From Mycobacterium terramassiliense (GTDB lineage Bacteria; Actinomycetota; Actinomycetes; Mycobacteriales; Mycobacteriaceae), in contig NZ_LT717700.1 in NCBI RefSeq assembly GCF_900157385.1, forward strand, positions 673,818-705,817: a stretch of 32,000 nucleotides of DNA, read 5' to 3'. The position numbers and the translations under genes were made by a program. The notes beneath the pieces were generated by a model that did no database searches, was not told where the DNA came from, and saw nothing but the letters and a program-made list of their open reading frames with translations. Within the stretch, counting starts at the first letter, position 1, and each line of letters starts with the position of its first letter. This document shows, piece after piece, positions 3,201-25,832 of this stretch.

Positions 3201-4895
3201 ATGACAAATCCTCGAGACCCTGCGCAGCCGTCGGCCGCCACCGGGCAACCGCGCAAGCCCGTCCTGCTGACCGTCGACGACGATCCCTCGGTCTCGCGCG
3301 CGGTGGCCCGGGACCTGCGCCGCCAGTACGGCGACCGGCACCGCATCGTGCGCGCCGAGTCGGGCTCCGACGCCCTGGAGACGCTCAAGGAGCTCAAACT
3401 GCGGGGCGAGACCGTCGCGGTGCTCATCGCCGACTACCGAATGCCGCAGATGAGCGGGATCGAGTTCCTCGAGCAGGCGATGGACCTCTACCCGGCGGCG
3501 CGGCGCGTCCTGCTGACCGCCTACGCCGACACCCATGCGGCCATCGACGCGATCAACGTCGTCGACCTCGACCACTACCTGCTCAAGCCGTGGGACCCGC
3601 CGCAGGAAAAGTTCTACCCCGTCGTCGACGGGCTGCTGGACGCCTGGCGGGCGGCGCCGGAGCATCCCATCCCGCACACCAAGGTGATCGGGCACCGCTG
3701 GTCGGAGCGGTCCTGGCAGGTGCGCGACTTCCTGGCCCGCAACGGCCTGCACTACTCGTGGTTCATGGCCGACGACCCCGACGGCGAGCGGTTGCTGAAG
3801 GCCGCCGGCGCGGATTGCCTGCGGCTGCCCGTCGTCGTCACCGAACGCGGCGACACCCTCGTCGAACCCACCGACGCGCAGCTGGCCGACACGCTGGGCC
3901 TCACCACCACGCCGTCGCAGGCGTTCTATGACCTGATCGTCATCGGCGGCGGGCCCGCGGGCCTGGCCGCCGCCGTCTACGGTGCGTCGGAGGGGCTGCG
4001 CACGGTCCTGATCGAGCGCACCGCGACGGGCGGTCAGGCCGGCCAGAGCTCGCGGATCGAGAACTACCTCGGCTTTCCCGACGGGGTGTCGGGCGGCCAG
4101 CTGGCCGAACGCGCGCGCAGGCAGGCCGAGAAGTTCGGCGCGGAGCTGATCACCGCCCGCGCCGCCACCGCGCTGGAGGTCAACGGTTCCAAGCGCACGG
4201 TGCGGTTCGCCGACGGTGGCTCGATCGATGCGCACTCCGTCATCCTGGCCACCGGCGTCGCGTACCGGCAGCTGTCGGCCCAGGGATGCACCGAGCTGAC
4301 CGGCCGGGGCGTCTACTACGGGGCGGCCGTTTCCATCGCGACGGAGTGCGCCGGCGAGGAGGTGTACGTGATCGGCGGGGCCAACTCCGCCGGGCAGGCC
4401 GCGATGTATCTGTCCCGCGAGGCGAAATCCGTGACGATCGCCGTGCGCGCCGCGTCCCTGGAGTCGTCGATGTCCTACTACCTGATCGAGCAGATCAGGC
4501 AGCGGCCCAACATCACCGTGCGCACCTGCACCGAGGTGCAGCGCGCCGTCGGCAACGACCATCTGGAAAGGCTGACCCTGGTCGACAACCGGACCGGCGA
4601 CACCGAGGACGTCACCTGCGCCCGGATGTTCATCTTCATCGGCGCCGCCCCGCGCACCGAGTGGCTGGACGGGGTGGTCGCCCGCGACGACCGCGGCTTC
4701 ATCCTCACCGGACCGGACCTGCGCAACGTGTGCGGCTGGACGTTGGACCGCCCGCCGCACCACCTGGAGACCAGCGTGCCGGGCGTGTTCGCCACCGGCG
4801 ACGTGCGCGCCGAGTCCGCCAAACGCGTCGCGGCAGCCGTCGGCGAGGGGTCGATGGCCGTGATGCTGGTGCACCGCTACCTCGCCGAAGCATGA
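3201..4895 (+). CDS. fused response-regulator receiver / glutaredoxin-like linker / thioredoxin-reductase-like FAD-NAD(P) oxidoreductase
   Basis: The protein is 564 aa. The receiver motifs are LLTVDDDPS, the acceptor Asp in VLIADYRMP (gac 3432-3434), LLTAYAD and LLKPW. The C-terminal half carries DLIVIGGGPAGLAAAVYG (FAD), VYVIGGANSAGQAAMYL (NAD(P)H) and VFATGDVR, as in TrxR-family flavoenzymes. Confidence 0.85.
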   Translation: MTNPRDPAQPSAATGQPRKPVLLTVDDDPSVSRAVARDLRRQYGDRHRIVRAESGSDALETLKELKLRGETVAVLIADYRMPQMSGIEFLEQAMDLYPAARRVLLTAYADTHAAIDAINVVDLDHYLLKPWDPPQEKFYPVVDGLLDAWRAAPEHPIPHTKVIGHRWSERSWQVRDFLARNGLHYSWFMADDPDGERLLKAAGADCLRLPVVVTERGDTLVEPTDAQLADTLGLTTTPSQAFYDLIVIGGGPAGLAAAVYGASEGLRTVLIERTATGGQAGQSSRIENYLGFPDGVSGGQLAERARRQAEKFGAELITARAATALEVNGSKRTVRFADGGSIDAHSVILATGVAYRQLSAQGCTELTGRGVYYGAAVSIATECAGEEVYVIGGANSAGQAAMYLSREAKSVTIAVRAASLESSMSYYLIEQIRQRPNITVRTCTEVQRAVGNDHLERLTLVDNRTGDTEDVTCARMFIFIGAAPRTEWLDGVVARDDRGFILTGPDLRNVCGWTLDRPPHHLETSVPGVFATGDVRAESAKRVAAAVGEGSMAVMLVHRYLAEA

Positions 4896-6379
4896 CCGCC
4901 AAGACGCCCTGCCGGCCCGACGAACTGCGCAGCCTGTTCCTGTTCGAGGCCCTGACCGACGAACAGCTGGCGACGCTGTGCGCCGACGGGCAAATCCAGG
5001 AGTACGAACCCGGCCCGATCTGCGTCGAGGGCGAACCCGCGACGTGCTTCTACGTCCTCATCGAGGGCGAGCTGGTGATGTCGAAGCTCTCCGGCGGGCA
5101 GGACATCGAGACCAACCGCACGTCGCAGCGCGGGGTGTACTGCGGCGCCTGGCAGGCGTTCACCGGCGAGCAGCAGCAGGCCTACAGCACCTCGGTGCGG
5201 GTGACCAAGCCGTCGCGGTTCTTCGTGCTGGACGCGCCCGCGTTCGCCCGCTTCATGCAGGACCAGTTCCCGATGGCGGTCCACCTGCTCGACGGGATCG
5301 CCGTGGGCACCGAGCGGACCCGGCGGATCATCGACAACCGGGAGAAGCTGCTGGCCCTGGGCCAGTTGTCGGCCGGGTTGACCCACCAACTGAACAACCC
5401 CGCCGCGGCCACCGTCCGGGCCGCCGCCGAGCTGCGCGAGCGGGTCGCCGGAATGCGCCAGAAACTGGCGATGCTCGCCGACGGGACCGTCACGCCCGAG
5501 GCGCTGCGCGCCCTGGTGCGGCTGCAGGAGGAGGTGGCGGCCCAGGTCGCCAAGTCGGCGTCGGCGAACCTGTCGGCGATCGAGACCGCCGACCTCGAGG
5601 ACGCCGTCGGCGAATGGCTCGACGAGCACGGCGTCGAGGGCGGTTGGGACATCGCCCCGACCTTCGTCGAGGGCGGCATCGACACCGCGTGGCTGGAGAG
5701 GATCGCCGCGACGACCGACGAACTCGACGCGTCGACCTCGCTGGAAAAGGCGATCCGCTGGCTCACCTACACCGTCGAGGGCGAGCTGCTGCTGAACCAG
5801 CTCCTGGAGGCGAGCAAGCGAATCTCGGCGCTGGTCGCCGACGCCAAGCAGTACTCGCAGATGGACCGGGCGCCGTTCCAGGTGGCCGACGTCCACGAAC
5901 TGCTGCGCAGCACGCTGACGATGTTCGCCGACCGGCTGGGCAAGGACGCCACGAAGGACGCGCCCGCGATCACGGTGGTCAAGGACTTCGACAAGTCCCT
6001 TCCCGAACTCCCTTGCTACCCAGGCGATCTCAACCAGGTGTGGACCAACATCATCGACAACGCCCTCGCCGCGATGCGCGACGGGGGCGGCACGCTGACC
6101 ATCCGCACCTGCCGGGAAGGCGAGAAGATGGCGCGGGTCGAGATCCGCGACACCGGACCGGGGATCCCCGACGACGTGCGCGAGCGGATATTCGAGCCGT
6201 TCTTCACCACCAAGCCGGTCGGCGAGGGGACGGGGCTGGGGCTGGACCTGGCGTGGAACATCGTCGTCAAGAAGCATCGCGGGGACCTGCGGGTCGAATC
6301 CGTACCCGGCGACACCCGGTTCATCGTCCTGCTGCCGCTCGAGCTCCCGCCCGCCGTCGACGTGAGTTTTCCGGAATAG
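4892..6379 (+). CDS. sensor histidine kinase with an N-terminal cyclic-nucleotide-binding-like domain
   Basis: The start ATG at 4892 overlaps the upstream TGA (ATGA, 4892-4895). The N-terminus LFLFEALTDEQLATLCADGQIQEYEPGPICVEGEPATCFYVLIEGELVM resembles a CAP/cNMP-binding beta-roll. The H-box is LSAGLTHQLNNP (His codon 5384-5386), the N-box is WTNIIDNALAAM, G1 is IRDTGPGIP, the F-box is FEPFFTTK and G2 is GTGLGLD. The 5' part of track ORF 4286..6379 is an out-of-context extension. Confidence 0.85.
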   Translation: MTAKTPCRPDELRSLFLFEALTDEQLATLCADGQIQEYEPGPICVEGEPATCFYVLIEGELVMSKLSGGQDIETNRTSQRGVYCGAWQAFTGEQQQAYSTSVRVTKPSRFFVLDAPAFARFMQDQFPMAVHLLDGIAVGTERTRRIIDNREKLLALGQLSAGLTHQLNNPAAATVRAAAELRERVAGMRQKLAMLADGTVTPEALRALVRLQEEVAAQVAKSASANLSAIETADLEDAVGEWLDEHGVEGGWDIAPTFVEGGIDTAWLERIAATTDELDASTSLEKAIRWLTYTVEGELLLNQLLEASKRISALVADAKQYSQMDRAPFQVADVHELLRSTLTMFADRLGKDATKDAPAITVVKDFDKSLPELPCYPGDLNQVWTNIIDNALAAMRDGGGTLTIRTCREGEKMARVEIRDTGPGIPDDVRERIFEPFFTTKPVGEGTGLGLDLAWNIVVKKHRGDLRVESVPGDTRFIVLLPLELPPAVDVSFPE

Positions 6380-17463: not shown

Positions 17464-18891
17464 TCAGCTCGGGTTACAGGAGAGTTCGGCGGCCATCAGC
17501 TGGTCGAGCTTGCCGGCCGTGGTCGATAGCGCCGAGCGGGCGATGCGCAGGATCCGATCCCGCACCCGGGGCTTCGCCGACGCCGGCGCCAGCAGATGGC
17601 CCATCAGATGACCGAACAGGTCCAGGCGCGCCGTGGCAAGCCAGGCGGTCAGGTCCGGGTCGTCGAGCCAGCGCAGCTGATTGCCGTAGTCGGCCCGCGC
17701 GACGCGCAACCAGTCCAGGTCGCTGTCGGGATGCGGCAGCGGCGGGCATAGCGCGTTTTTCGCGGCGTCGTCGGGGCAGGCGGTCTCGAGGTGAGCGATC
17801 AGCGCCGCGCTGAATATCTGCTGGCACCCACGCACACTCTGCAACGTGATGTGGCCCGGACCGAAGATCGGTGTGGCGGGCCGCTTCTCGGCCCCGTCGG
17901 CGGTGCAGTCGACGTACAGCGCCGGGACCTCCGTGCGGACGGCGCCGCCCTCGAGGACCATTCCGTCGCCGTCGACGCGCAGCAGGTGGCCCATGCGCAC
18001 GACGTCGGTGATGCGCCGCAGCTGCTCCAGCTCGGCGTGGGTGACGGTGGCGCAGCGGTACATGGTGGGGCGGATCGCCGGGTCGATCCGCAGCAGCGTG
18101 CCGGCGTCCTCGAGGCGGGAGAACAGATCCTCGACCGAGGTCGCATCCCGGACGGCCCGCAGCTGGGCGGTGAAGGCGGCCTTGATCCGGTCGGCGAACA
18201 ACGATCCCGGCTGGATCGTCGCGCGATCCAGCAGCCATGAGTCCCGCGGCATGATCCAGGTCAGCCGGTCCGCCGCGATGCCCTGCCCCAGCAGCCACAG
18301 GCAGGTGTCGATGCCGGTCTTGCCCGCCCCGACGATGACGTAGCGCTCACGGGCCGCGAGCCGCGGCAGGTCGTTGGGCGGCACGCACGTGACGCCGGGC
18401 GCGACCTCGTACGGGGGCGGGCGCATCGAGGGAACCTCGACGCGCATGTAGGTGGCGTCGACGACGCGGCGCGTGACGTCGACGGCGTAGTCGGCCCCGC
18501 CGAGCGTCGTGAAGCGGCCCCGTAATCCGTCGCTGCCGCGGTACTCGCTCATCGGGAAGTAGGAGACGCGGCCGGTGGGCAGGAAGCGCCGGCGCAGGAC
18601 GTGGTCGTAGTACGCGCAGACCTCACCGGCGGTCGCCAGCTCGTAAAGCCCCTCGTTCCAGCCGACCTGGTCGATGGCGTCGCTACCCAGGGGCAGCGAG
18701 TTGACGCCGTAGAACGCCGACGGCTGGTGCAGCCGTACGAACGGGTACGCCGTGGTCCAGTGCCCACCCGGCTGGTGGTGGCGATCCACCAGCACCACGC
18801 GGGCCCGCGTCTCGGTGAGCAGCGTGTCGAGGAACGCCATGCCCATGGCGCCCGCCCCGACCACCAGGTAGTCGGCATCGATGGTGTGCAT
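17464..18891 (-). CDS. FAD/NAD(P)-binding oxidoreductase (two-dinucleotide-binding-domain flavoprotein)
   Basis: The 475-aa protein has two Rossmann motifs, DYLVVGAGAMGMAF and RYVIVGAGKTGIDT. No closer family assignment is possible by eye. Confidence 0.7.
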   Translation of the reverse strand: MHTIDADYLVVGAGAMGMAFLDTLLTETRARVVLVDRHHQPGGHWTTAYPFVRLHQPSAFYGVNSLPLGSDAIDQVGWNEGLYELATAGEVCAYYDHVLRRRFLPTGRVSYFPMSEYRGSDGLRGRFTTLGGADYAVDVTRRVVDATYMRVEVPSMRPPPYEVAPGVTCVPPNDLPRLAARERYVIVGAGKTGIDTCLWLLGQGIAADRLTWIMPRDSWLLDRATIQPGSLFADRIKAAFTAQLRAVRDATSVEDLFSRLEDAGTLLRIDPAIRPTMYRCATVTHAELEQLRRITDVVRMGHLLRVDGDGMVLEGGAVRTEVPALYVDCTADGAEKRPATPIFGPGHITLQSVRGCQQIFSAALIAHLETACPDDAAKNALCPPLPHPDSDLDWLRVARADYGNQLRWLDDPDLTAWLATARLDLFGHLMGHLLAPASAKPRVRDRILRIARSALSTTAGKLDQLMAAELSCNPS

Positions 18892-18933
18892 ACGGGGTCA
18901 AGGCTAACCCGGCCGCCATCGTGGCGGTCGCGG

Positions 18934-20049
18934 TCACGCCGCCCGGGCCTCGACCACGCTGAGCGGAGCAGCGGTGTGCACCACCCGGGTGACTCGGAAT
19001 CCGGCCTGGCCGAGTAGATCTCGGTACTCGGAGGCGGTGCGTTCGCGGGCCCCCAGGTTCAGCAGCATTTCCAAATCCACCCACTTTCCCGGGAAGTCAC
19101 GGTCGTGCCCGGGAATGACCAGTTCGACCAGCAGCACCGTGGCGTGCGGGCCGGCCGCGGCGCGCACGTTACGCAGGATCTGCACCGCTTTGTCGTCGGG
19201 CCAGTCGTGGACGATGTTCTTGAGGATGTAGGCATCGCCGCCGCACGGAACGCTGTCGAAAAAAGAACCCGCTGCGAGGCGGACGCGGTCGGCGACGTTG
19301 CTCTCGCGCAACAGCTTTGGGGCCTCGGCGATCACGTGGGGCAGGTCGTAAAGTACGCCCCGCGACGCAGGCGCTCCCGCCAGGATGGCGGCCAGCAGCG
19401 GTCCGTGCCCGCCGCCCACGTCGACGATCGTGGGGTAGGCACCGAAGTCGTAGCCGGCGACCACCGGCCCGTCGGTCAGCGCCGAAACGCTCGTCATCGT
19501 GCGGTTGAAGAGGTTGGCGAGCTCGGGGTACCGGTCGAAGTAGTCGAAGCTCGCCTCCCCGCGCAACGCCGGGACGACCGTCCTTCCGGTGCGGATCGAG
19601 TCGACCAGCAGGGTCCAGCGTTCGCGCTGTTCGGCCGAGCCGTAGAACTGCGCCGCCCACGTCATCGAGATCGGCGCATCCGAACGCAGCGTTGCGGCAA
19701 GGGAATTCAGCTCGTAGCGCCCGTCGCGGCGATGACGGAAGATGCCCTTGCCGATCAACGCCCGCAGCAGCCGGCCCAGCGCGTCCGCGTCGGCGCCCAC
19801 CCGGGCGGCCAGCTGCTCGATCGGCAGCGGGCCGTCCGCCAGGGCGTCGGCGACGCCGAGTTGGGCCGCCGCGGTGATGGCCTGCGATGTCCAGTTCGCA
19901 ATGATCAGCTCCATCATCGCGGCCGGCGCGGGTGTCAGCCGTTGATGCAGCCGGTACAGGTGGTGGCGAATCCACTCCACGGCGCGGGCCAGCGTGGCGG
20001 GCGGCACCCTGGTGGTCCTGTCGGCGGCCGTGTTGGTCGAAGACGTCAT
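18934..20049 (-). CDS. SAM-dependent O-methyltransferase (family 2, with an N-terminal dimerisation/winged-helix domain)
   Basis: The 371-aa protein has SAM motif I (TIVDVGGGHGPLLAAIL), then DLPHV and YILKNIVHDWPDDKAVQIL, typical of small-molecule O-methyltransferases. The ATG overlaps the upstream stop (ATGA at 20046-20049). Confidence 0.8.
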   Translation of the reverse strand: MTSSTNTAADRTTRVPPATLARAVEWIRHHLYRLHQRLTPAPAAMMELIIANWTSQAITAAAQLGVADALADGPLPIEQLAARVGADADALGRLLRALIGKGIFRHRRDGRYELNSLAATLRSDAPISMTWAAQFYGSAEQRERWTLLVDSIRTGRTVVPALRGEASFDYFDRYPELANLFNRTMTSVSALTDGPVVAGYDFGAYPTIVDVGGGHGPLLAAILAGAPASRGVLYDLPHVIAEAPKLLRESNVADRVRLAAGSFFDSVPCGGDAYILKNIVHDWPDDKAVQILRNVRAAAGPHATVLLVELVIPGHDRDFPGKWVDLEMLLNLGARERTASEYRDLLGQAGFRVTRVVHTAAPLSVVEARAA

Positions 20050-21284
20050 GTGGCATCGACAAGACGGGGGGTCGCCGCGAGGTCACTGCTGACCTTGGCG
20101 GAGATCCGGCGGTGACTCACCGCGCACAGAAACGTCGTGAGCGCCCAGGTCATGACGCGGTCCGAGATCATCCCCGCCGGCCTCAGCGCGGACTCGCTGC
20201 GGGAGACCTGCTGCGTGGTCACCCAGGACACCGCGCCGACCTTGCGTCGCCTGGTGTTCTCGTACCAGCGCAGCGCGGCCGAGAGATCCCGGACGTTGCC
20301 GCGTGCCCCCCCGCGGCCCGTGCGGGGATGCGAAAGCGCCTGGCACAACACCATCGTGTCGAGCAGCGCCTGATTGGTTCCCTGCGCCAGGGTCGGCGGC
20401 ATCGTGTGTGCGGCGTCGCCCAGCAACGTGACCGGCCCGTGCCCCGGGCCGGGAATCGGATGCCGGAAATGGGGGAACGGCGAAGGGGCCAGATCCCCGT
20501 CGGTCAACGCCGCGAGTACGCGGTCAGCCGCCTCCGACCATCCCCCGAAATGGGACCGGATCATCTCGATCGGGCGTTGTGGTCTGACGAAGTCGTGCGA
20601 CCACGGCAGGTCGAACCACCACTGCAGCTGCGAACCTCCGGCCGGCCACAGTCCGAGGTTTCCGTGCTCGCCGATGATCATCTGAGCGGCGTGCCTGTCG
20701 CCGATGTCGGGCAGGCTGACCAGCCCCTGCCAGCTGCACCAGCCGGTCGATTTCGCCGGTGGCGCACCGACGACGCCGCGAACCATCGAGTGCAGGCCGT
20801 CCGCACCGATCAGCAGGTCTCCGTCGGCCGAGCAGCCGTCTTCGAACTCGATCCGAATTCCGTTGTCCGTGTTGACCACCCCGGCCGCACGGCTGTTGCA
20901 GCGGATGCGATCGAGCGGAAAGCCTTCCAACAGCCGTTCCAGCAGGACTCGACGCGGGACCATCCGAACCGGCGCTCCCAGCCGGTCGATGATCGCGGTC
21001 AGGTCGACGGTGGCGACCGAGCGGCCGCTCGGTGTGTTCACCCGCACCGTGGACAGTGGCTGACCGGCCCCATCCATCTCGACCCCCAGCTGCCGCAGAA
21101 CGGTCGAGCCATTGGACCAGATGGTCACGGCGCCGCCGCCCGCAGTCACCTCCGGTCGCCGTTCGAAGACGGTGACGTCGTGTCCGTCACGCAATAATCC
21201 CCGGGCGGCGGAGATGCCGCCCACGCCGGCGCCGACGATGAGGATCCTGAGCTTGTTGGAATGGCTCACTTCGGTCCCCGGCAT
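20046..21284 (-). CDS. FAD-dependent aromatic-ring monooxygenase (group A flavoprotein hydroxylase-like)
   Basis: The 412-aa protein starts at ATG 21284, 5 nt after the aminotransferase stop. It carries LRILIVGAGVGGISAA (GxGxxG), LLIGADGLHSMVR (DG motif) and VTLLGDAAHTMPPTLAQGTNQALLD (GD motif). The track ORF extends further 5', overlapping the upstream gene. Confidence 0.8.
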   Translation of the reverse strand: MPGTEVSHSNKLRILIVGAGVGGISAARGLLRDGHDVTVFERRPEVTAGGGAVTIWSNGSTVLRQLGVEMDGAGQPLSTVRVNTPSGRSVATVDLTAIIDRLGAPVRMVPRRVLLERLLEGFPLDRIRCNSRAAGVVNTDNGIRIEFEDGCSADGDLLIGADGLHSMVRGVVGAPPAKSTGWCSWQGLVSLPDIGDRHAAQMIIGEHGNLGLWPAGGSQLQWWFDLPWSHDFVRPQRPIEMIRSHFGGWSEAADRVLAALTDGDLAPSPFPHFRHPIPGPGHGPVTLLGDAAHTMPPTLAQGTNQALLDTMVLCQALSHPRTGRGGARGNVRDLSAALRWYENTRRRKVGAVSWVTTQQVSRSESALRPAGMISDRVMTWALTTFLCAVSHRRISAKVSSDLAATPRLVDAT

Positions 21285-21289
21285 CCCGA

Positions 21290-22333
21290 TCAGCCCCGCG
21301 CCCTGTCCACCGCGGCCAGCACCGCTCTCGTAGACGCGCGGCTTGCGACGGTGATCCGGGCGGCGCCGTCGGGGTAGTAGCGGGCCGTCAGCCCGGTGTC
21401 GCCGAACACCTCTCGCCATGCTCGCGCGACGGCGGGGAGGTAAACGAAGTTGGCGTGCCCGCCGGTGGTGTACACGCCCTTCGCGCGAAGGCGCCGGGAC
21501 AGGAAGTCGCGCTCACCGGTGATCCGCAGGACGCGTTGCCGCAACTGGTCTTCGGCGTCGTAGCACGCCGCGACCGCGACCAGGCTGGTGATGCCCATGC
21601 CGAACGGCAGCTGCATCTCCCACAGGGTCGCGGCCAGCGCCGGTGAAGAGAACCCGTACCCGACGCGAAGCCCGGCCAGGCCATAGGCCTTCGAGAAGGT
21701 CCGCACCACAACGACGTTCGGGAATTGCCGGATCAGGTCGGGTCCGTCGATGCGGAGCCGGGGGGAGACGAACTCGATATAGGCCTCGTCGAGCAGGACG
21801 ATCGTGTCGTCCGGCACCTGCCGCAGGAATCGCTGCACGTCCGCGACGGGCTCCAGGGTGCCCGTCGGGTTGTGGGGCCGGCACAACACCACCACGCGGG
21901 CGTCCGCCGCCGCTTCGGCCATGGCGCCCAGGTTGTGGTGGCCGCGAGCGTCGAGCGCAACGGTGACCGGTGTGAGGCGGGCCATCCGGGCGAAGATCGG
22001 GTACCCGTCGAAAGTCGGCTCGCTCAGCACAATCCGATCGCCGGGCCGCGTCATCGCGTGCAGGATCTGCATCACGACTCCGCTGGCGCCGGCTCCGAGC
22101 ACCACTTGCTCGTCGCACACCCCGATGTGACCGGCGACCAGGCGGCGCAGCCGTTCGGGCAGGAACTCCGGGTACCGGTTGGCGACGTCGATGGAGCGGA
22201 TCAGCGCCGAGCGCACCGCCGGCAGCGGCGGAAACGGGTTCTCGTTGAGCGACAAGGCGAATGGATCGCTCGCGATCGGCAGCGCATCGAGGATCTCGGC
22301 GGTGACGGGGCTCGCCGCCAGCAAGGGCAACAT
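21290..22333 (-). CDS. class I/II PLP-dependent aminotransferase (HisC / aromatic aminotransferase-like)
   Basis: The 347-aa protein contains LSLNENPFPP, CRPHNPTG, LLDEAYIEF and RTFSKAYGLAGLRVGY, the last holding the PLP-lysine motif SKxxGLAGxRxGY. Confidence 0.85.
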   Translation of the reverse strand: MLPLLAASPVTAEILDALPIASDPFALSLNENPFPPLPAVRSALIRSIDVANRYPEFLPERLRRLVAGHIGVCDEQVVLGAGASGVVMQILHAMTRPGDRIVLSEPTFDGYPIFARMARLTPVTVALDARGHHNLGAMAEAAADARVVVLCRPHNPTGTLEPVADVQRFLRQVPDDTIVLLDEAYIEFVSPRLRIDGPDLIRQFPNVVVVRTFSKAYGLAGLRVGYGFSSPALAATLWEMQLPFGMGITSLVAVAACYDAEDQLRQRVLRITGERDFLSRRLRAKGVYTTGGHANFVYLPAVARAWREVFGDTGLTARYYPDGAARITVASRASTRAVLAAVDRARG

Positions 22334-23352
22334 CAGCTTCGTCCTCCCCAGCGCAGGGCCGCCGCGCCCGCGAAGTCGCCGGCGTGGGCGAAGGCGGCCA
22401 TCATCACGACGTCACCGGCGTTCAGCCGACCGTCCGATATCGCGCGATCCAGGTTGATCGGGATGCCGGCGCCAAACAGGTTGCCGCACTCGTCAAAAGT
22501 GTCGACGTGTCTCGATTCGGGAACCTCCAGCGCCTCGCGCCAATTGCGCAGGAACACCCGGTTGGGTTGGTTGGTCACCAGCAGGTCGATGTCCTTGGAC
22601 GCCAAGCCGATTCGATCACAGACGGCCAGCGCCACCTCGGGGACCTGCCGATTGCCCCGCGCAAGCACCTTGGTGATCTTGGATTCGGTGAACCCGATGG
22701 AGGCTTCACCCGGCCCGGGCTGCCACCACTTGCGGGGCGGGTCGATGGCGAGCGTCATGTCACCGGCGTATTCGCCGTAGGTGCGGCACTCGACATCCAG
22801 GATCGGGGATTCATCCGAGAGCGTCACCAATCCGACGGCGGCGCCGTCACCGGGGACCGCGGCCTGCGCCTTGCGCCGCACCCCCGGCTGGTCGAAGGCC
22901 TGGCCGGCGGCGTTCTGGGCGATCGCGACCAGCGCGGTGCTCCCCTGTCCGGACGCGAGCAGTTGACGGGCCACGTTGAGCGCCAGCACGAACGCCGCGC
23001 AGCCACCGTTGTGCAGATCCAGCACCGAGCTCGGGCGCATGCCCAACCGGTGCGCGATGCTGCCCCCCCCGCCATAGAACGGCATGTCGGGCATTTGCGC
23101 GTGGGTGATCAGCACGTCGACGTTGGCAATGACGTCGTGGCCGTGCCGTTCGATCAGCCCCTGGGCCGCGCGCTCGATCATGTCGGTCGCGGTTTCGTCC
23201 GGGCCGACGTGATGGCGGAACTTGGGCGCGCGGAACATCAGGTTGGCCGCCAGGTCGTCCGAGCCAGCGAACTGCGCGTAATAATCGGCGCCGATCGGTT
23301 CGCCGGGCAGGTAGGTGGACACGTCGGCCAGGCTGACGGTGGGTCGGTTCAT
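22333..23352 (-). CDS. KAS III (FabH)-like thiolase-fold enzyme with an atypical catalytic triad
   Basis: The 339-aa protein starts at ATG 23352, which overlaps the upstream stop (ATGA at 23349-23352). The active-site Cys lies in LHNGGCAAF (C118). The FabH PHQAN box reads TNQPN (Asn261, codon 22570-22572). The GN box is conserved as ECGNLFGAGIP (N291). Confidence 0.8.
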   Translation of the reverse strand: MNRPTVSLADVSTYLPGEPIGADYYAQFAGSDDLAANLMFRAPKFRHHVGPDETATDMIERAAQGLIERHGHDVIANVDVLITHAQMPDMPFYGGGGSIAHRLGMRPSSVLDLHNGGCAAFVLALNVARQLLASGQGSTALVAIAQNAAGQAFDQPGVRRKAQAAVPGDGAAVGLVTLSDESPILDVECRTYGEYAGDMTLAIDPPRKWWQPGPGEASIGFTESKITKVLARGNRQVPEVALAVCDRIGLASKDIDLLVTNQPNRVFLRNWREALEVPESRHVDTFDECGNLFGAGIPINLDRAISDGRLNAGDVVMMAAFAHAGDFAGAAALRWGGRS

Positions 23353-24020
23353 GAGGTGCTCATCCATTCCGGCGTGACGGGCAAGCCGTTGCGGTGCCGG
23401 TACTCGGCGATTGACTTGAGGTTGTTCAGTTCCAGCCCGTGGCCGGCTCCGAAGATGTCCCAGAAGTCGCCTACCCAGCCGGTGCGCTCCGGCGGGGCGG
23501 CCTCGGGATACGGGTTGTGGTCGTAGAAGGGGTGGCGGCAATTGGTCCACAGCACAACGGAACCGGGCTTGCCGAGCACGACCTGTGCGTCGAGCACCCG
23601 CATCAGGTAGATCATCCACAGGTGCTCGCCCTGGTCCCAGGCGCAGTGGTAGTCGACGGTGCGGGCCTGCGCGTTGGACACCGTGCGCGTGTAGATCTTG
23701 GTGTCCGGAAGCAACCGGTCGTAGGCCAACCAGAGCCCGGGCTCCCCGGTGGGGGTGAAGTCGCGAAGGGTGTAGGTCCACTCCTCGAGGCTGCGGGTGT
23801 CGGCCAGGTATTCGAACAGCTCGTCGGGTGGGCAGTCGACGTAGTCGTTGACCGTGCAGTACTGCCCGAAGACCTCGTCGTGCGGGTAGACCGATCGCAT
23901 CTTCGCCATGAACATCGGGGCGGTTTCCTCGAGCGGCGAGGTCTCGATGCGGACCACTCCCTCGATCGGCCGGGTGGTGCCGCTGTGCACGGCGATATCG
24001 TCAAGCGCTGCTATGGACAT
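23349..24020 (-). CDS. hypothetical protein (223 aa), conserved-looking, family not recognisable by eye
   Basis: The sequence reads MSIAALDDIAVHSGTTRPIEGVVRIETSPLEE...YCTVNDYVDCPPDELFEYLADTRSLEEWTYTLRDF...DYHCAWDQGEHLWMIYLMRV.... The composition is coding-like and not Arg/Gly/Pro junk. The ATG lies inside the last 10 nt of the ThDP gene and is preceded by GGAGAA. Confidence 0.6.
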   Translation of the reverse strand: MSIAALDDIAVHSGTTRPIEGVVRIETSPLEETAPMFMAKMRSVYPHDEVFGQYCTVNDYVDCPPDELFEYLADTRSLEEWTYTLRDFTPTGEPGLWLAYDRLLPDTKIYTRTVSNAQARTVDYHCAWDQGEHLWMIYLMRVLDAQVVLGKPGSVVLWTNCRHPFYDHNPYPEAAPPERTGWVGDFWDIFGAGHGLELNNLKSIAEYRHRNGLPVTPEWMSTS

Positions 24021-25759
24021 GTAATCGGTTCTCCTTTTTGCGGTGTGATCTGTTGTTCGGCCACGTGATTGGCGGGCTTGCGGTTGAGGAACGCCGCGAA
24101 CGGGGGGATTTCGTCGGCGGCGCACTCGACGCTGACCACGGCCGGGCCGTCGACCGCCAGTGCCCGTCGCAGTGCGGCGGCAAGCGCGTCGGGGTCGGCC
24201 ACGTCGACCGCGCACAGCCCGGGGAACATCGCCGCCAGGCCGGCCGCCAGCCGGCTGGGAGCAAACCGGTTGTAGCTGTAGAGGTCGTCGTAGAACAGCT
24301 GCTCGCGGGTCACGCACATGGCGTGGGCGTTGTTGTTGAACAGCACGAAGGTCACGGGCAGCCGGTACTGCACGGCGGTGTGCACCTCCATGCCGTGCAT
24401 GAAGAACGCGCCGTCCCCGGCGATCACGACGGTGCGCCCGCCGGGGCGCCCGCTGCCGGCCCGCCCGAAGGCCATCCCGATGCCGGCACCGAAGCTGTAA
24501 CCCATACCCCCCATGCCGAGTGCGACCGCGAAGCGGCCGTCCCGCCGCGCCGGCAGGTAATGGATCGCGGCCGCGCCGGTGTTGCCCGCGTCGACGACGA
24601 TGTCGGTCCCGCCGGGCAACGCGCTGTCCAGCGCCACCATGGCGTCCCGGTAACGCACGCCCGTGCCGGCAAAGGATGGTGGGCTGAGCTCTGTGCCCGC
24701 AACGAAATCGGGCACGCGCAGCCCCCGTGCCCGCCCCGGCCCGGACAACGCCCTGGTCAGCATCGTCAACGAACCCCGCAGATTCTCGGTGTGCACATGC
24801 GTGCACGGCAGGTAGGGCGCGGCGGAGCCGAGCGAGACCGTCCGCACCGCGGCGAGCGCGTCGTCGAGGCCGGCGCGGGCCGTCACCGACAGCCGGGTGC
24901 CGACCACCAGGCACACGGCGCTCGCGGCGACCGCGTCGGCCACACCGGGATGACCCATCACACCCGTCACGCCGAGCGCGGAAGAGGAACCGAAACCCGG
25001 CGTGCCGGCGACATCTTTGGCGTCGGGCACGCATGCCACCTGGGCACGCAGCAGGGCGCGCAACTCCTCGAGTTCGGCCCGGGCGTCGTCACGCGCGACC
25101 TGTTCGCCGGCGATGATGGTGACAGGCCCCTTCGCTCGCCGCAGGGCGCGCACGATCGGGTGCGGATCGCCGATGCTCGCCCCCGGGTGCTCCGCGCCGC
25201 GCCGATCACCACCTCCGTAGCCATCGATGTCCACCTTCGCCTGCTGAATATCCTTGGGCAGCAACAACACCGCCGGGCCGCCGGCGCGCGCCGCCGCGAT
25301 GGCGCTGGGCAACGCCGAAACGATGTCGGCGGGCGTCAGGACCCGCCGGCAAAAGACCGAGACCGCAGAGAACAGCGCCTCGGCGTCCAGGGAACCGTTG
25401 CGGCCGCTGGTGTCCTGGAAACTGCCCCGACCATCCATCGTGGTAGCGGGCTGACCCACCAATGCCAACACCGGCACCCGGCTGGCCAATGACTCCCCAA
25501 GGCCCGGAATGAGATTCAGCGCGCCTCCGCCGGATGTCGCCGCCACCACGCCCAAACCGGCGCCGCTGCGGCTATACCCGTCGGCCATCGTGGCCGCGGA
25601 GAACTCGTGCTTCGCCAATACCGCGGTGATGTCCGAATTGAAATGTGCGGCGTCGTAAAGATCTTCGATATTGGCGCCGTCGACGCCGAAGATGTAATCG
25701 CTGTCGATTCTCGCGAGGTATTCGACGATGTGGTCGACCACCCTGTGTTGCCTGGGCAT
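24011..25759 (-). CDS. thiamine-diphosphate-dependent enzyme (acetolactate-synthase / acyloin-forming family)
   Basis: The 582-aa protein has the N-terminal PYR domain (DYIFGVDGANIEDLYDA...ATMADGYSR...GVVAATSGGGALNLIPGLGES) and the C-terminal ThDP motif IAGDGAFFMHGMEVHTAVQYRLPVTFVLFNNN (GDG...NN). An AGGTGAG SD precedes ATG 25759. Confidence 0.85.
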   Translation of the reverse strand: MPRQHRVVDHIVEYLARIDSDYIFGVDGANIEDLYDAAHFNSDITAVLAKHEFSAATMADGYSRSGAGLGVVAATSGGGALNLIPGLGESLASRVPVLALVGQPATTMDGRGSFQDTSGRNGSLDAEALFSAVSVFCRRVLTPADIVSALPSAIAAARAGGPAVLLLPKDIQQAKVDIDGYGGGDRRGAEHPGASIGDPHPIVRALRRAKGPVTIIAGEQVARDDARAELEELRALLRAQVACVPDAKDVAGTPGFGSSSALGVTGVMGHPGVADAVAASAVCLVVGTRLSVTARAGLDDALAAVRTVSLGSAAPYLPCTHVHTENLRGSLTMLTRALSGPGRARGLRVPDFVAGTELSPPSFAGTGVRYRDAMVALDSALPGGTDIVVDAGNTGAAAIHYLPARRDGRFAVALGMGGMGYSFGAGIGMAFGRAGSGRPGGRTVVIAGDGAFFMHGMEVHTAVQYRLPVTFVLFNNNAHAMCVTREQLFYDDLYSYNRFAPSRLAAGLAAMFPGLCAVDVADPDALAAALRRALAVDGPAVVSVECAADEIPPFAAFLNRKPANHVAEQQITPQKGEPITCP

Positions 25760-25793
25760 CTGCTCACCTAACTTGGGTATCTGCTTCTAACAC

Positions 25794-25825
25794 GACCCCC
25801 GGGTGACTTCAGTTCACCCGGGGTC
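25794..25825 (-). terminator. GC-rich hairpin between the rslA-like stop and the ThDP gene start (candidate terminator or attenuator)
   Basis: The arms gacccccgggtga (25794-25806) and tcacccggggtc (25814-25825) form a 12-bp stem with one bulged C and a 7-nt loop. On the transcript the hairpin is followed by UGUUAGAAG. It begins 8 nt after the rslA-like stop codon. Confidence 0.5.
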
Positions 25826-25832
25826 GAAAGAT

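Follow-up and report, generated by a model that had tools for sequence, protein, structure and literature searches.

Carbazole biosynthesis in bacteria and a related mycobacterial locus

The biosynthesis of carbazoles in bacteria has been worked out in only a few Streptomyces (PMC7466098). In carquinostatin biosynthesis, the carbazole synthase is CqsB2, an enzyme that needs no cofactor, with Glu105, Tyr144, Tyr172, His206 and Glu209 as its proposed catalytic residues, and in both the cqs and the nzs cluster a dedicated acyl carrier protein (ACP) and a classical β-ketoacyl-ACP synthase III (KASIII), NzsE and NzsF, supply 3-hydroxybutyryl-ACP (PMC7466098). The carbazomycin (cbz) cluster, also from Streptomyces, comprises seven genes in 8.3 kb; it is devoid of the ACP and of NzsF, and encodes an O-methyltransferase (OMT) and a FAD-binding protein of the berberine bridge enzyme (BBE) type (PMC11610953). 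CqsB1 reportedly accepts 3-hydroxybutyryl-CoA, and the ACP-less cbz cluster has been proposed to use acetyl-CoA (PMC7466098, PMC11610953). A 2020 review of bacterial carbazoles names homologous clusters in S. cattleya, Sorangium and Scytonema, with mycobacteria unmentioned (PMC7466098). Here, we describe a locus of seven genes, G1 to G7, in a 32,000-nucleotide stretch of Mycobacterium terramassiliense DNA (contig NZ_LT717700.1, positions 673,818 to 705,817; the whole stretch is referred to as the window). Judged by comparison of its proteins with the characterised enzymes, the locus probably specifies a divergent form of the pathway by which bacteria make carbazole alkaloids. Its core consists of a thiamine diphosphate (ThDP)-dependent carboligase (G1), a cyclase (G2), a KASIII-like condensing enzyme (KAS; G3) and an aminotransferase (G4).

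A homologue of the carbazole synthase CqsB2

The assignment hinges on G2. The initial annotation called it an unknown 223-aa protein, and neither Pfam nor NCBIfam does indeed return a match; the protein is nevertheless identifiable as CqsB2-type, since it matches the structure of CqsB2 (PDB 6IPV) with E=1.2e-51. Its identity to CqsB2 is 42–44%. The proposed catalytic residues E105, Y144, Y172, H206 and E209 of CqsB2 align with D101, Y138, Y166, H194 and E197 of G2, all of which are invariant among the aligned mycobacterial homologues; four of the five are identical between the two proteins, and the fifth, Glu to Asp, is a conservative change. Across the family, the Tyr-Tyr-His-Glu set is invariant in 395 of 395 sequences. 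The AlphaFold model of G2 (pLDDT 88.6) finds CqsB2 as its top Foldseek match (E=7.7e-21), followed by Bet v1/START-type proteins. The family is small and specific: of 1.84 billion representatives, its members make up only 169 clusters when grouped at 50% identity. By its sequence and its modelled fold, G2 is a homologue of the CqsB2/NzsI-type carbazole synthases. The scaffold is therefore predictable, where the initial annotation held that the product could not be predicted.

A C-terminal CqsB2-like cyclase domain also occurs in proteins of 550–800 aa (P0441, P0504, P0522, P0560 and P0561), which suggests natural fusions with another pathway enzyme.

The partner enzymes

Two reference clusters were used for comparison, the authentic cqs cluster (L081, retrieved by a sequence search with CqsB2) and a carbazomycin-type cluster (L082). 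The first is arranged as CqsB1, CqsB2, CqsB3, prenyltransferase, CqsB5, ACP and CqsB7, with a cytochrome P450 gene nearby; the second as KAS, cyclase, ThDP enzyme, BBE flavoenzyme, aminotransferase, NmrA and OMT. Each of G1 to G4 matches its counterpart in these clusters. G1 has 33% of its residues in common with CqsB3 and 38% with the ThDP enzyme of the carbazomycin type (207–212 bits), whereas solved acetolactate synthase (ALS) structures score no higher than about 104 bits; G1 keeps the catalytic Glu and the ThDP motif GDG...NN. G3 is 28% identical to CqsB1 and scores 132 bits with it, while the classical KASIII CqsB5 reaches 59 bits and the best solved FabH 72 bits. G4 shares 44% of its residues with CqsB7 and 45% with the carbazomycin-type aminotransferase (227–235 bits). 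In Mycobacterium, Tsukamurella, Gordonia and Nocardia, its gene comes immediately after that of the KAS, and G4 is predicted to convert L-tryptophan to indole-3-pyruvate.

The best names offered by NCBIfam are acetolactate synthase, FabH and HisC, as might be expected if the genes were chance neighbours, paralogues of IlvB/IlvG, FabH and HisC without a dedicated product. All scores, however, lie far below the curated cut-offs: G1 scores 184 bits with the best ALS model (cut-off 538) and 123 with Xsc (cut-off 676), G3 scores 118 with FabH (cut-off 249), and G4 scores 223 and 290 with two HisC models (cut-offs 277 and 374). The four genes moreover keep their synteny across genera, are under purifying selection and include a member of the small, specific cyclase family. 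Assignment to the housekeeping IlvB, FabH and HisC was rejected on the unreached equivalog cut-offs and the conserved synteny, and chance neighbourhood is hardly credible.

A second alternative is an acyloin cluster of the xenocyloin or sattabacin type, which the initial annotation took as the closest system. A ThDP carboligase and KASIII-like enzymes form the core of the xenocyloin pathway, and the same combination, free of a polyketide synthase (PKS), a nonribosomal peptide synthetase (NRPS) and an ACP, is seen here; the KASIII-like enzyme would then merely acylate the acyloin, and no ring would form. Yet in every locus, the ThDP and KAS genes enclose a translationally coupled gene for a CqsB2-type cyclase whose catalytic residues are intact, which makes this alternative very improbable, and all four core proteins have counterparts in authentic carbazole clusters. 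By the match of G2 to CqsB2, the cqs/nzs/cbz carbazole pathway is the closer relative.

An altered active site and two clades

The enzymes expected for a carbazole core are a CqsB2/NzsI-type cyclase with its catalytic residues, a CqsB3/NzsH-type carboligase and a CqsB1/NzsJ-type KASIII-like enzyme beside it, and a CqsB7/NzsD-type aminotransferase in the same cluster. G2, G1, G3 and G4, respectively, supply all four. The Cys-His-Asn triad expected of the KAS is replaced in G3 by Cys123-Asn266-Asn296; in the alignment, the motif VTNQPN of G3 corresponds to ITHQPN in CqsB1 and to VPHQAN in CqsB5. Cys-Asn-Asn was found in all 68 mycobacterial loci in which the three positions could be read, and likewise in the clade's members from Streptomyces, Tsukamurella, Gordonia, Nocardia and M. 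avium. Because the catalytic triad departs from that of the characterised enzymes, the locus is treated as a sister variant rather than as a plain member of the family; on sequence grounds, this variant most likely works like the carbazole pathway.

Overall, the ThDP-cyclase-KAS trio falls into two co-diverging clades. In the characterised clade (cqs, the cbz type, Sorangium and Legionella), the KAS has Cys-His-Asn (ITHQPN) and the cyclase usually has Glu at position 105 (69 of 93). In the clade of the window (Mycobacterium, M. avium, Nocardia, Gordonia, Tsukamurella and one Streptomyces), the KAS has Cys-Asn-Asn (VTNQPN), the cyclase has Asp in 298 of 302 sequences, and the gene order ThDP-cyclase-KAS-aminotransferase is fixed. 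Neither an ACP nor a second KASIII is encoded in any examined locus of this clade.

The trio of the gammaproteobacterium Legionella dresdenensis (L085, 10001-13340), arranged as cyclase-ThDP-KAS, has a mosaic look: the KAS and the cyclase are like those of the characterised clade, while the ThDP enzyme is closer to the mycobacterial clade (40% identity to G1 against 32% to CqsB3), and no aminotransferase gene adjoins the trio. In some genomes, among them the metagenome-assembled genomes (MAGs) CAWERF01 and CAWKME01, with two loci each (L066/L067 and L017/L043), the cyclase or the whole operon occurs twice, and Streptomyces stramineus encodes two cyclases (P0126/P0138). A 4.8-kb contig (L045) in a MAG labelled Jatrophihabitans sp. 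encodes a cyclase 84% and ThDP and KAS proteins 80–83% identical to those of the window; it looks like a Mycobacterium contig mis-binned into that MAG.

Conservation of a four-gene core operon

The core was compared in 80 loci from GTDB species representatives, drawn from at least 573 matching stretches; synteny was counted in the 53 Mycobacterium loci whose flanks extend at least 8 kb to either side. The ThDP gene is present in 51 of these 53 loci, the KAS gene in 52 and the aminotransferase gene in 49, and the run ThDP-cyclase-KAS-aminotransferase is contiguous and co-directional in 44. The association of the core genes is far beyond chance. The conserved unit is a four-gene operon at 21290-25759. 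At this scale, the core operon occurs in several hundred species-level genomes of Mycobacterium (the matched stretches number at least 573), and it is also found in the M. avium complex and in M. paratuberculosis (MAP); in M. avium and MAP, it is intact and its genes overlap. No M. tuberculosis name occurs among the named matches, which does not bear on whether that species carries the operon.

Outside Mycobacterium, the four genes recur as an operon with 4-nt overlaps and wholly different neighbours in Tsukamurella sp. 8F, Gordonia polyisoprenivorans, a Nocardia sp. and Streptomyces sp. NPDC057910; in Tsukamurella sp. 8F, the cyclase is 70% and the KAS 55% identical to those of the window. 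Ratios of nonsynonymous to synonymous substitution rates (dN/dS) of 0.10–0.22 for G1 to G3 and 0.19–0.43 for G4 indicate purifying selection. The core is probably an ancient, selectively maintained operon of the Mycobacteriales, and its enzymes form a clade that is sister to those characterised from Streptomyces. Such chemistry is already known from Streptomyces, and the set of enzymes is an ordinary one; noteworthy are its wide spread in the Mycobacteriales, with the M. avium complex and MAP among the carriers, and the consistent differences in the active sites.

A proposed pathway and its rivals

The proposed steps are modelled on the characterised Cqs and Nzs enzymes; homology was established enzyme by enzyme, and every substrate and product is inferred. 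G4 would transaminate L-tryptophan to indole-3-pyruvate, which G1 would carboligate with pyruvate in a ThDP-dependent step to an acyloin-type alpha-hydroxy-beta-keto acid. Cys123 of G3 may then be loaded with an acyl group from acyl-CoA or from a housekeeping acyl-ACP, donors that are proposed because no carrier protein is encoded, and G3 would condense this group decarboxylatively with the keto acid. Finally, G2 would act in a cofactor-free manner to close and aromatise ring A onto C2 of the indole, giving a 1-alkyl-2-methyl-3(,4)-oxygenated carbazole. Of the tailoring candidates, G5 may hydroxylate and G6 may O-methylate the scaffold, and two upstream flavoenzymes, an oxidase of the vanillyl-alcohol oxidase (VAO) type and a flavin-containing monooxygenase (FMO)-like protein, possibly add redox steps by analogy with the cbz BBE-type protein. 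The order put forward in the initial annotation (transamination, ThDP carboligation, a KASIII step, hydroxylation and O-methylation) is essentially the published route to the carbazole skeleton (PMC7466098).

Several observations weigh against a carbazole as the product. The enzymes share only modest identity with their characterised counterparts (KAS 28%, ThDP enzyme 33–38%, cyclase 42–44%); G3 has Asn266 in place of the catalytic His of CqsB1/NzsJ, a swap that is conserved in every examined member of the clade; amino-acid and acyl-donor specificity cannot be read from sequence; and no report of a carbazole from Mycobacterium was found in the literature. G1 is also fairly close to BbmA and CsmA (PDB 8X3X and 8X3Z), its closest solved ThDP structures, and its 176 bits with BbmA are of the same order as its score with CqsB3. 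Because CqsB3 likewise matches these two structures best, the likeness does not separate the hypotheses; a literature search on the function of BbmA and CsmA returned nothing relevant.

The altered KAS triad and the low identities are the reason to keep a rival with the same ancestry and a different, non-carbazole scaffold, arising either from another arylpyruvate or 2-oxo acid or from changed KAS or cyclase chemistry. The correlated, clade-wide changes to Cys-Asn-Asn in the KAS and Asp101 in the cyclase would suit such a product, as would the lack of an ACP throughout the examined loci of the clade and the tailoring genes, which are not orthologous to those of cqs, nzs or cbz. Set against this, however, the cyclase shows no variation at four of its five proposed catalytic positions and a conservative change at the fifth, and G4 is 44% identical to CqsB7, which is tryptophan-specific. 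Furthermore, the published ring closure needs an electron-rich ring such as C2 of indole, and Tsukamurella, a genus known to make lipocarbazoles, has the operon of this clade (PMC7466098 for the chemistry and the genus). We regard a non-carbazole scaffold as unlikely, and the divergent carbazole pathway remains the preferred reading.

Gene layout and the limits of the operon

All seven minus-strand ORFs recognised in the initial annotation, with the domain types given there, were found again at the same positions (Table 1), with two corrected starts: the KAS gene begins with ATG at 23367, and G5 most likely begins at 21284 rather than 21419. The genes had been described as co-directional and mostly overlapping, and from G1 to G6 they do overlap or lie no more than 5 nt apart: the overlaps are 10 nt (G1/G2), 19 nt (G2/G3), 1 nt (G3/G4) and 4 nt (G5/G6), the gap between G4 and G5 is 5 nt, and those between G6 and G7 and between G7 and the sigma factor gene are 42 and 22 nt. 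A strong AAGGAG Shine-Dalgarno sequence precedes the start of G2. The genes for the VAO and FMO proteins overlap by 4 nt, and 73 nt separate the ThDP gene from an anti-sigma factor gene upstream of it. A consensus scan of 14000-30000 gave no promoter-like sites and no terminator-like sites above chance; the limits of the operon were therefore drawn from gene spacing and synteny.

The view of the locus as a specialised-metabolite cluster that lacks PKS, NRPS and ACP is likewise upheld. In the window, no PKS, NRPS or PP-binding domain was found among the main ORFs, and the carrier motif [LIVMF]G[LIVMFAY]DS[LIVMA] is absent from all six frames of the window. Neither a second KASIII nor a prenyltransferase was found in the window.

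Table 1. Positions of the core, tailoring, accessory and regulatory genes in the window
Feature	Position	Strand	Basis of assignment
G1, ThDP-dependent ALS-like carboligase, CqsB3/NzsH counterpart	24011-25759	-	Pfam TPP_enzyme N/M/C domains
G2, CqsB2/NzsI-type carbazole synthase homologue, Bet v1/SRPBCC fold, 223 aa	23349-24020	-	PDB 6IPV match
G3, KASIII-like condensing enzyme, CqsB1/NzsJ counterpart	22333-23367	-	Pfam ACP_syn_III + ACP_syn_III_C
G4, class I/II HisC-like aminotransferase, CqsB7/NzsD counterpart	21290-22333	-	Pfam Aminotran_1_2
G5, group A FAD monooxygenase, candidate aromatic hydroxylase (tailoring)	20046-21284	-	Pfam FAD_binding_3
G6, class I family-2 O-methyltransferase, tailoring candidate	18934-20049	-	Pfam Dimerisation + Methyltransf_2
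G7, 475-aa Rossmann-type flavoprotein	17464-18891	-	Two GxGxxG dinucleotide-binding motifs
zf-HC2 anti-sigma factor	25833-26615	-	Pfam zf-HC2 + NCBIfam anti-sigma match
VAO/BBE-type FAD oxidase, accessory candidate	26744-28084	-	Pfam FAD_binding_4, weak BBE match
FMO-like class B flavoprotein monooxygenase, accessory candidate	28081-29307	-	Pfam Pyr_redox_3 + FMO-like
Extracytoplasmic function (ECF) sigma factor	16905-17441	-	90% identity to M. avium gene with Sigma70_r2 + Sigma70_r4 product
Rieske-domain membrane protein	16219-16908	-	Pfam Rieske domain

Accessory genes and the sigma factor block

Seen against the conserved core, the seven-gene operon of the initial annotation is a composite: the four-gene core stands, whereas G5 and G6 occur together in only 21 of the 53 loci, and G7 goes with a sigma factor block. 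G5, whose nearest solved structures are HpxO and tropone 2-monooxygenase, lies within 10 kb of the core in 25 of the 53 loci, and G6 is present in 22; in six of the 21 loci that contain both, the pair is upstream of the core. In M. avium, a 69%-identical copy of G5 adjoins the anti-sigma gene. The closest solved structures to G6 are AlpH (8H3T, 308 bits) and the methyltransferase 6C5B, and its identity to the carbazomycin-type OMT is only 32%. We take AlpH to be a S-adenosylmethionine (SAM)-independent, OMT-like enzyme of diazo formation in kinamycin biosynthesis. An AlpH-like role for G6 was rejected, as the SAM motifs DVGGGxG and LYDLPHV, which are lost in AlpH, are kept; from these motifs, G6 is probably a true methyltransferase.

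The initial annotation suggested that the two upstream flavoenzyme genes (26744-29307) may belong to the cluster. Within Mycobacterium, the VAO gene is co-located with the core in 41 of the 53 loci, in variable orientation, and the FMO gene is always paired with it, the pair occurring in 40. The linkage does not extend further: the pair is absent at the core in M. avium and in the Tsukamurella, Gordonia and Nocardia loci, and is for this reason accessory at best. The VAO protein (446) was also considered as an orthologue of CbzC and rejected as such, its match to the BBE protein of L082 being partial (31% over 211 residues, E=1e-7); by this comparison, it is an analogue rather than an orthologue of the FAD_binding_4/BBE protein of the carbazomycin cluster. 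Both the G5/G6 pair and the VAO/FMO pair are lineage-specific accessories.

For G7, searches of the PDB and of protein families gave only weak Rossmann-type matches, none of them informative. The gene is present in 9 of the 53 loci and sits directly upstream of the ECF sigma factor gene in every locus whose flank reaches that gene. In the window, a conserved block on the minus strand (14804-18891) comprises G7, the ECF sigma factor and the Rieske-domain membrane protein, together with a cupredoxin-like ORF and a metallophosphoesterase. The block is intact in M. avium and MAP (L089, 17039-20648), where mmsB-like, acyl-CoA dehydrogenase and aldehyde dehydrogenase genes part it from the core. Because of its adjacency to the sigma gene and this separation in M. 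avium and MAP, G7 is assigned to the sigma block even if it is co-transcribed with the core, and it is probably outside the pathway. In the Rieske protein, the N-terminus is anti-sigma-like, and one hydrophobic segment is rich in alanine.

The anti-sigma factor gene is present in 46 of the 53 loci. Its product is 67% identical to an M. avium anti-sigma factor whose gene directly follows a sigma gene beside adk-map, in a SigL/RslA-like position. No sigma gene adjoins it in the window, where the VAO/FMO pair fills the place expected of one; the gene is possibly a regulatory neighbour of the core.

The DNA of the window is mycobacterial and of high GC content (about 69%), and 13480-32000 is collinear with Mycobacterium interjectum DSM 44064 at 92–95% identity. 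The remaining genes include rpoA-rpsD-rpsK-rpsM-infA, rmlB, rmlC, PE-PGRS genes, an aldehyde dehydrogenase and an acyl-CoA dehydrogenase. A PE-PGRS C-terminal, aspartyl-peptidase-like domain is found in two adjoining plus-strand genes, 11712-12623 and 12712-14382, the second of which encodes a full PE and PGRS N-terminus. Beside the ribosomal-protein genes lies an unusual signalling pair, also on the plus strand: 3201-4895 encodes a response-regulator receiver domain fused to a pyridine-nucleotide disulfide oxidoreductase, and the overlapping 4892-6379 encodes a protein with a cNMP-binding and a HATPase_c domain.

Comparison with known systems

The locus resembles the cqs and nzs clusters in that the same four enzyme types are encoded together and the KAS keeps its Cys, its Asn and the QPN motif. 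It differs from them in the absence from the window of an ACP (NzsE/CqsB6), a second KASIII (NzsF/CqsB5), a prenyltransferase and a P450, in the order ThDP-cyclase-KAS-aminotransferase with its overlaps, in the exchange of the KAS His for Asn and of Glu105 of the cyclase for Asp, and in identities of 28–44%. The dedicated ACP and classical KASIII are missing from the cbz cluster as well. With cbz, the locus shares its compact, seven-gene form, the four core genes, an OMT with Dimerisation and Methyltransf_2 domains and a FAD_binding_4/BBE flavoenzyme nearby; by contrast, cbz encodes a NmrA-type short-chain dehydrogenase/reductase (SDR) and no group A FAD monooxygenase, its KAS is Cys-His-Asn, and all of its core proteins belong to the other clade.

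Compared by description, the xenocyloin and sattabacin pathways likewise carboligate a 2-oxo acid in a ThDP-dependent step and continue with a KASIII-like enzyme without a PKS or NRPS. To our knowledge, they have no CqsB2-type cyclase and end at acylated acyloins. TcmN ARO/CYC and other Bet v1/SRPBCC proteins share the fold of G2, and the TcmN-type aromatase/cyclases have a role similar to that of the carbazole synthase, namely guiding the cyclisation of a reactive keto intermediate (PMC7466098). Unlike G2, the aromatase/cyclases of type II PKS systems act on a poly-beta-ketone rather than on the indole acyloin adduct that would be the substrate here; they have no detectable sequence similarity to G2, and their KS-alpha/beta and ACP partners are absent from the window.

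The lipocarbazoles of Tsukamurella pseudospumae and carazostatin are classed as '3-oxygenated' carbazoles whose ring-A machinery is unidentified (PMC7466098), and no gene cluster tied to lipocarbazoles was found in the literature. Tsukamurella belongs to the Mycobacteriales, and Tsukamurella sp. 8F has a four-gene operon of the same clade as the window; the link between this operon and lipocarbazoles is one of taxonomic analogy. We tentatively suggest that the clade with Cys-Asn-Asn and Asp101 could be the machinery for mono-oxygenated, long-alkyl carbazoles of the lipocarbazole or carazostatin type, with the KAS drawing long-chain acyl thioesters from mycobacterial fatty-acid metabolism and the altered cyclase finishing ring A differently. 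If this were true, mycobacteria, the M. avium complex and M. paratuberculosis among them, would share with Nocardia, Gordonia and Tsukamurella a conserved class of redox-active, lipophilic carbazoles that might be under sigma/anti-sigma control. More generally, activity of the clade would mean that an indole alkaloid of slow-growing non-tuberculous mycobacteria has gone unrecognised, one that may be an antioxidant or a redox-active lipid like the known carbazoles. The paired changes, His to Asn in the KAS and Glu to Asp in the cyclase, would offer a handle on the choice of acyl side chain in ACP-less clusters and on the origin of 3-mono-oxygenated carbazoles. Since Tsukamurella carries an operon of the same clade, the lipocarbazole hypothesis is testable, and the locus described here is a candidate for the type of gene cluster behind the Tsukamurella lipocarbazoles.

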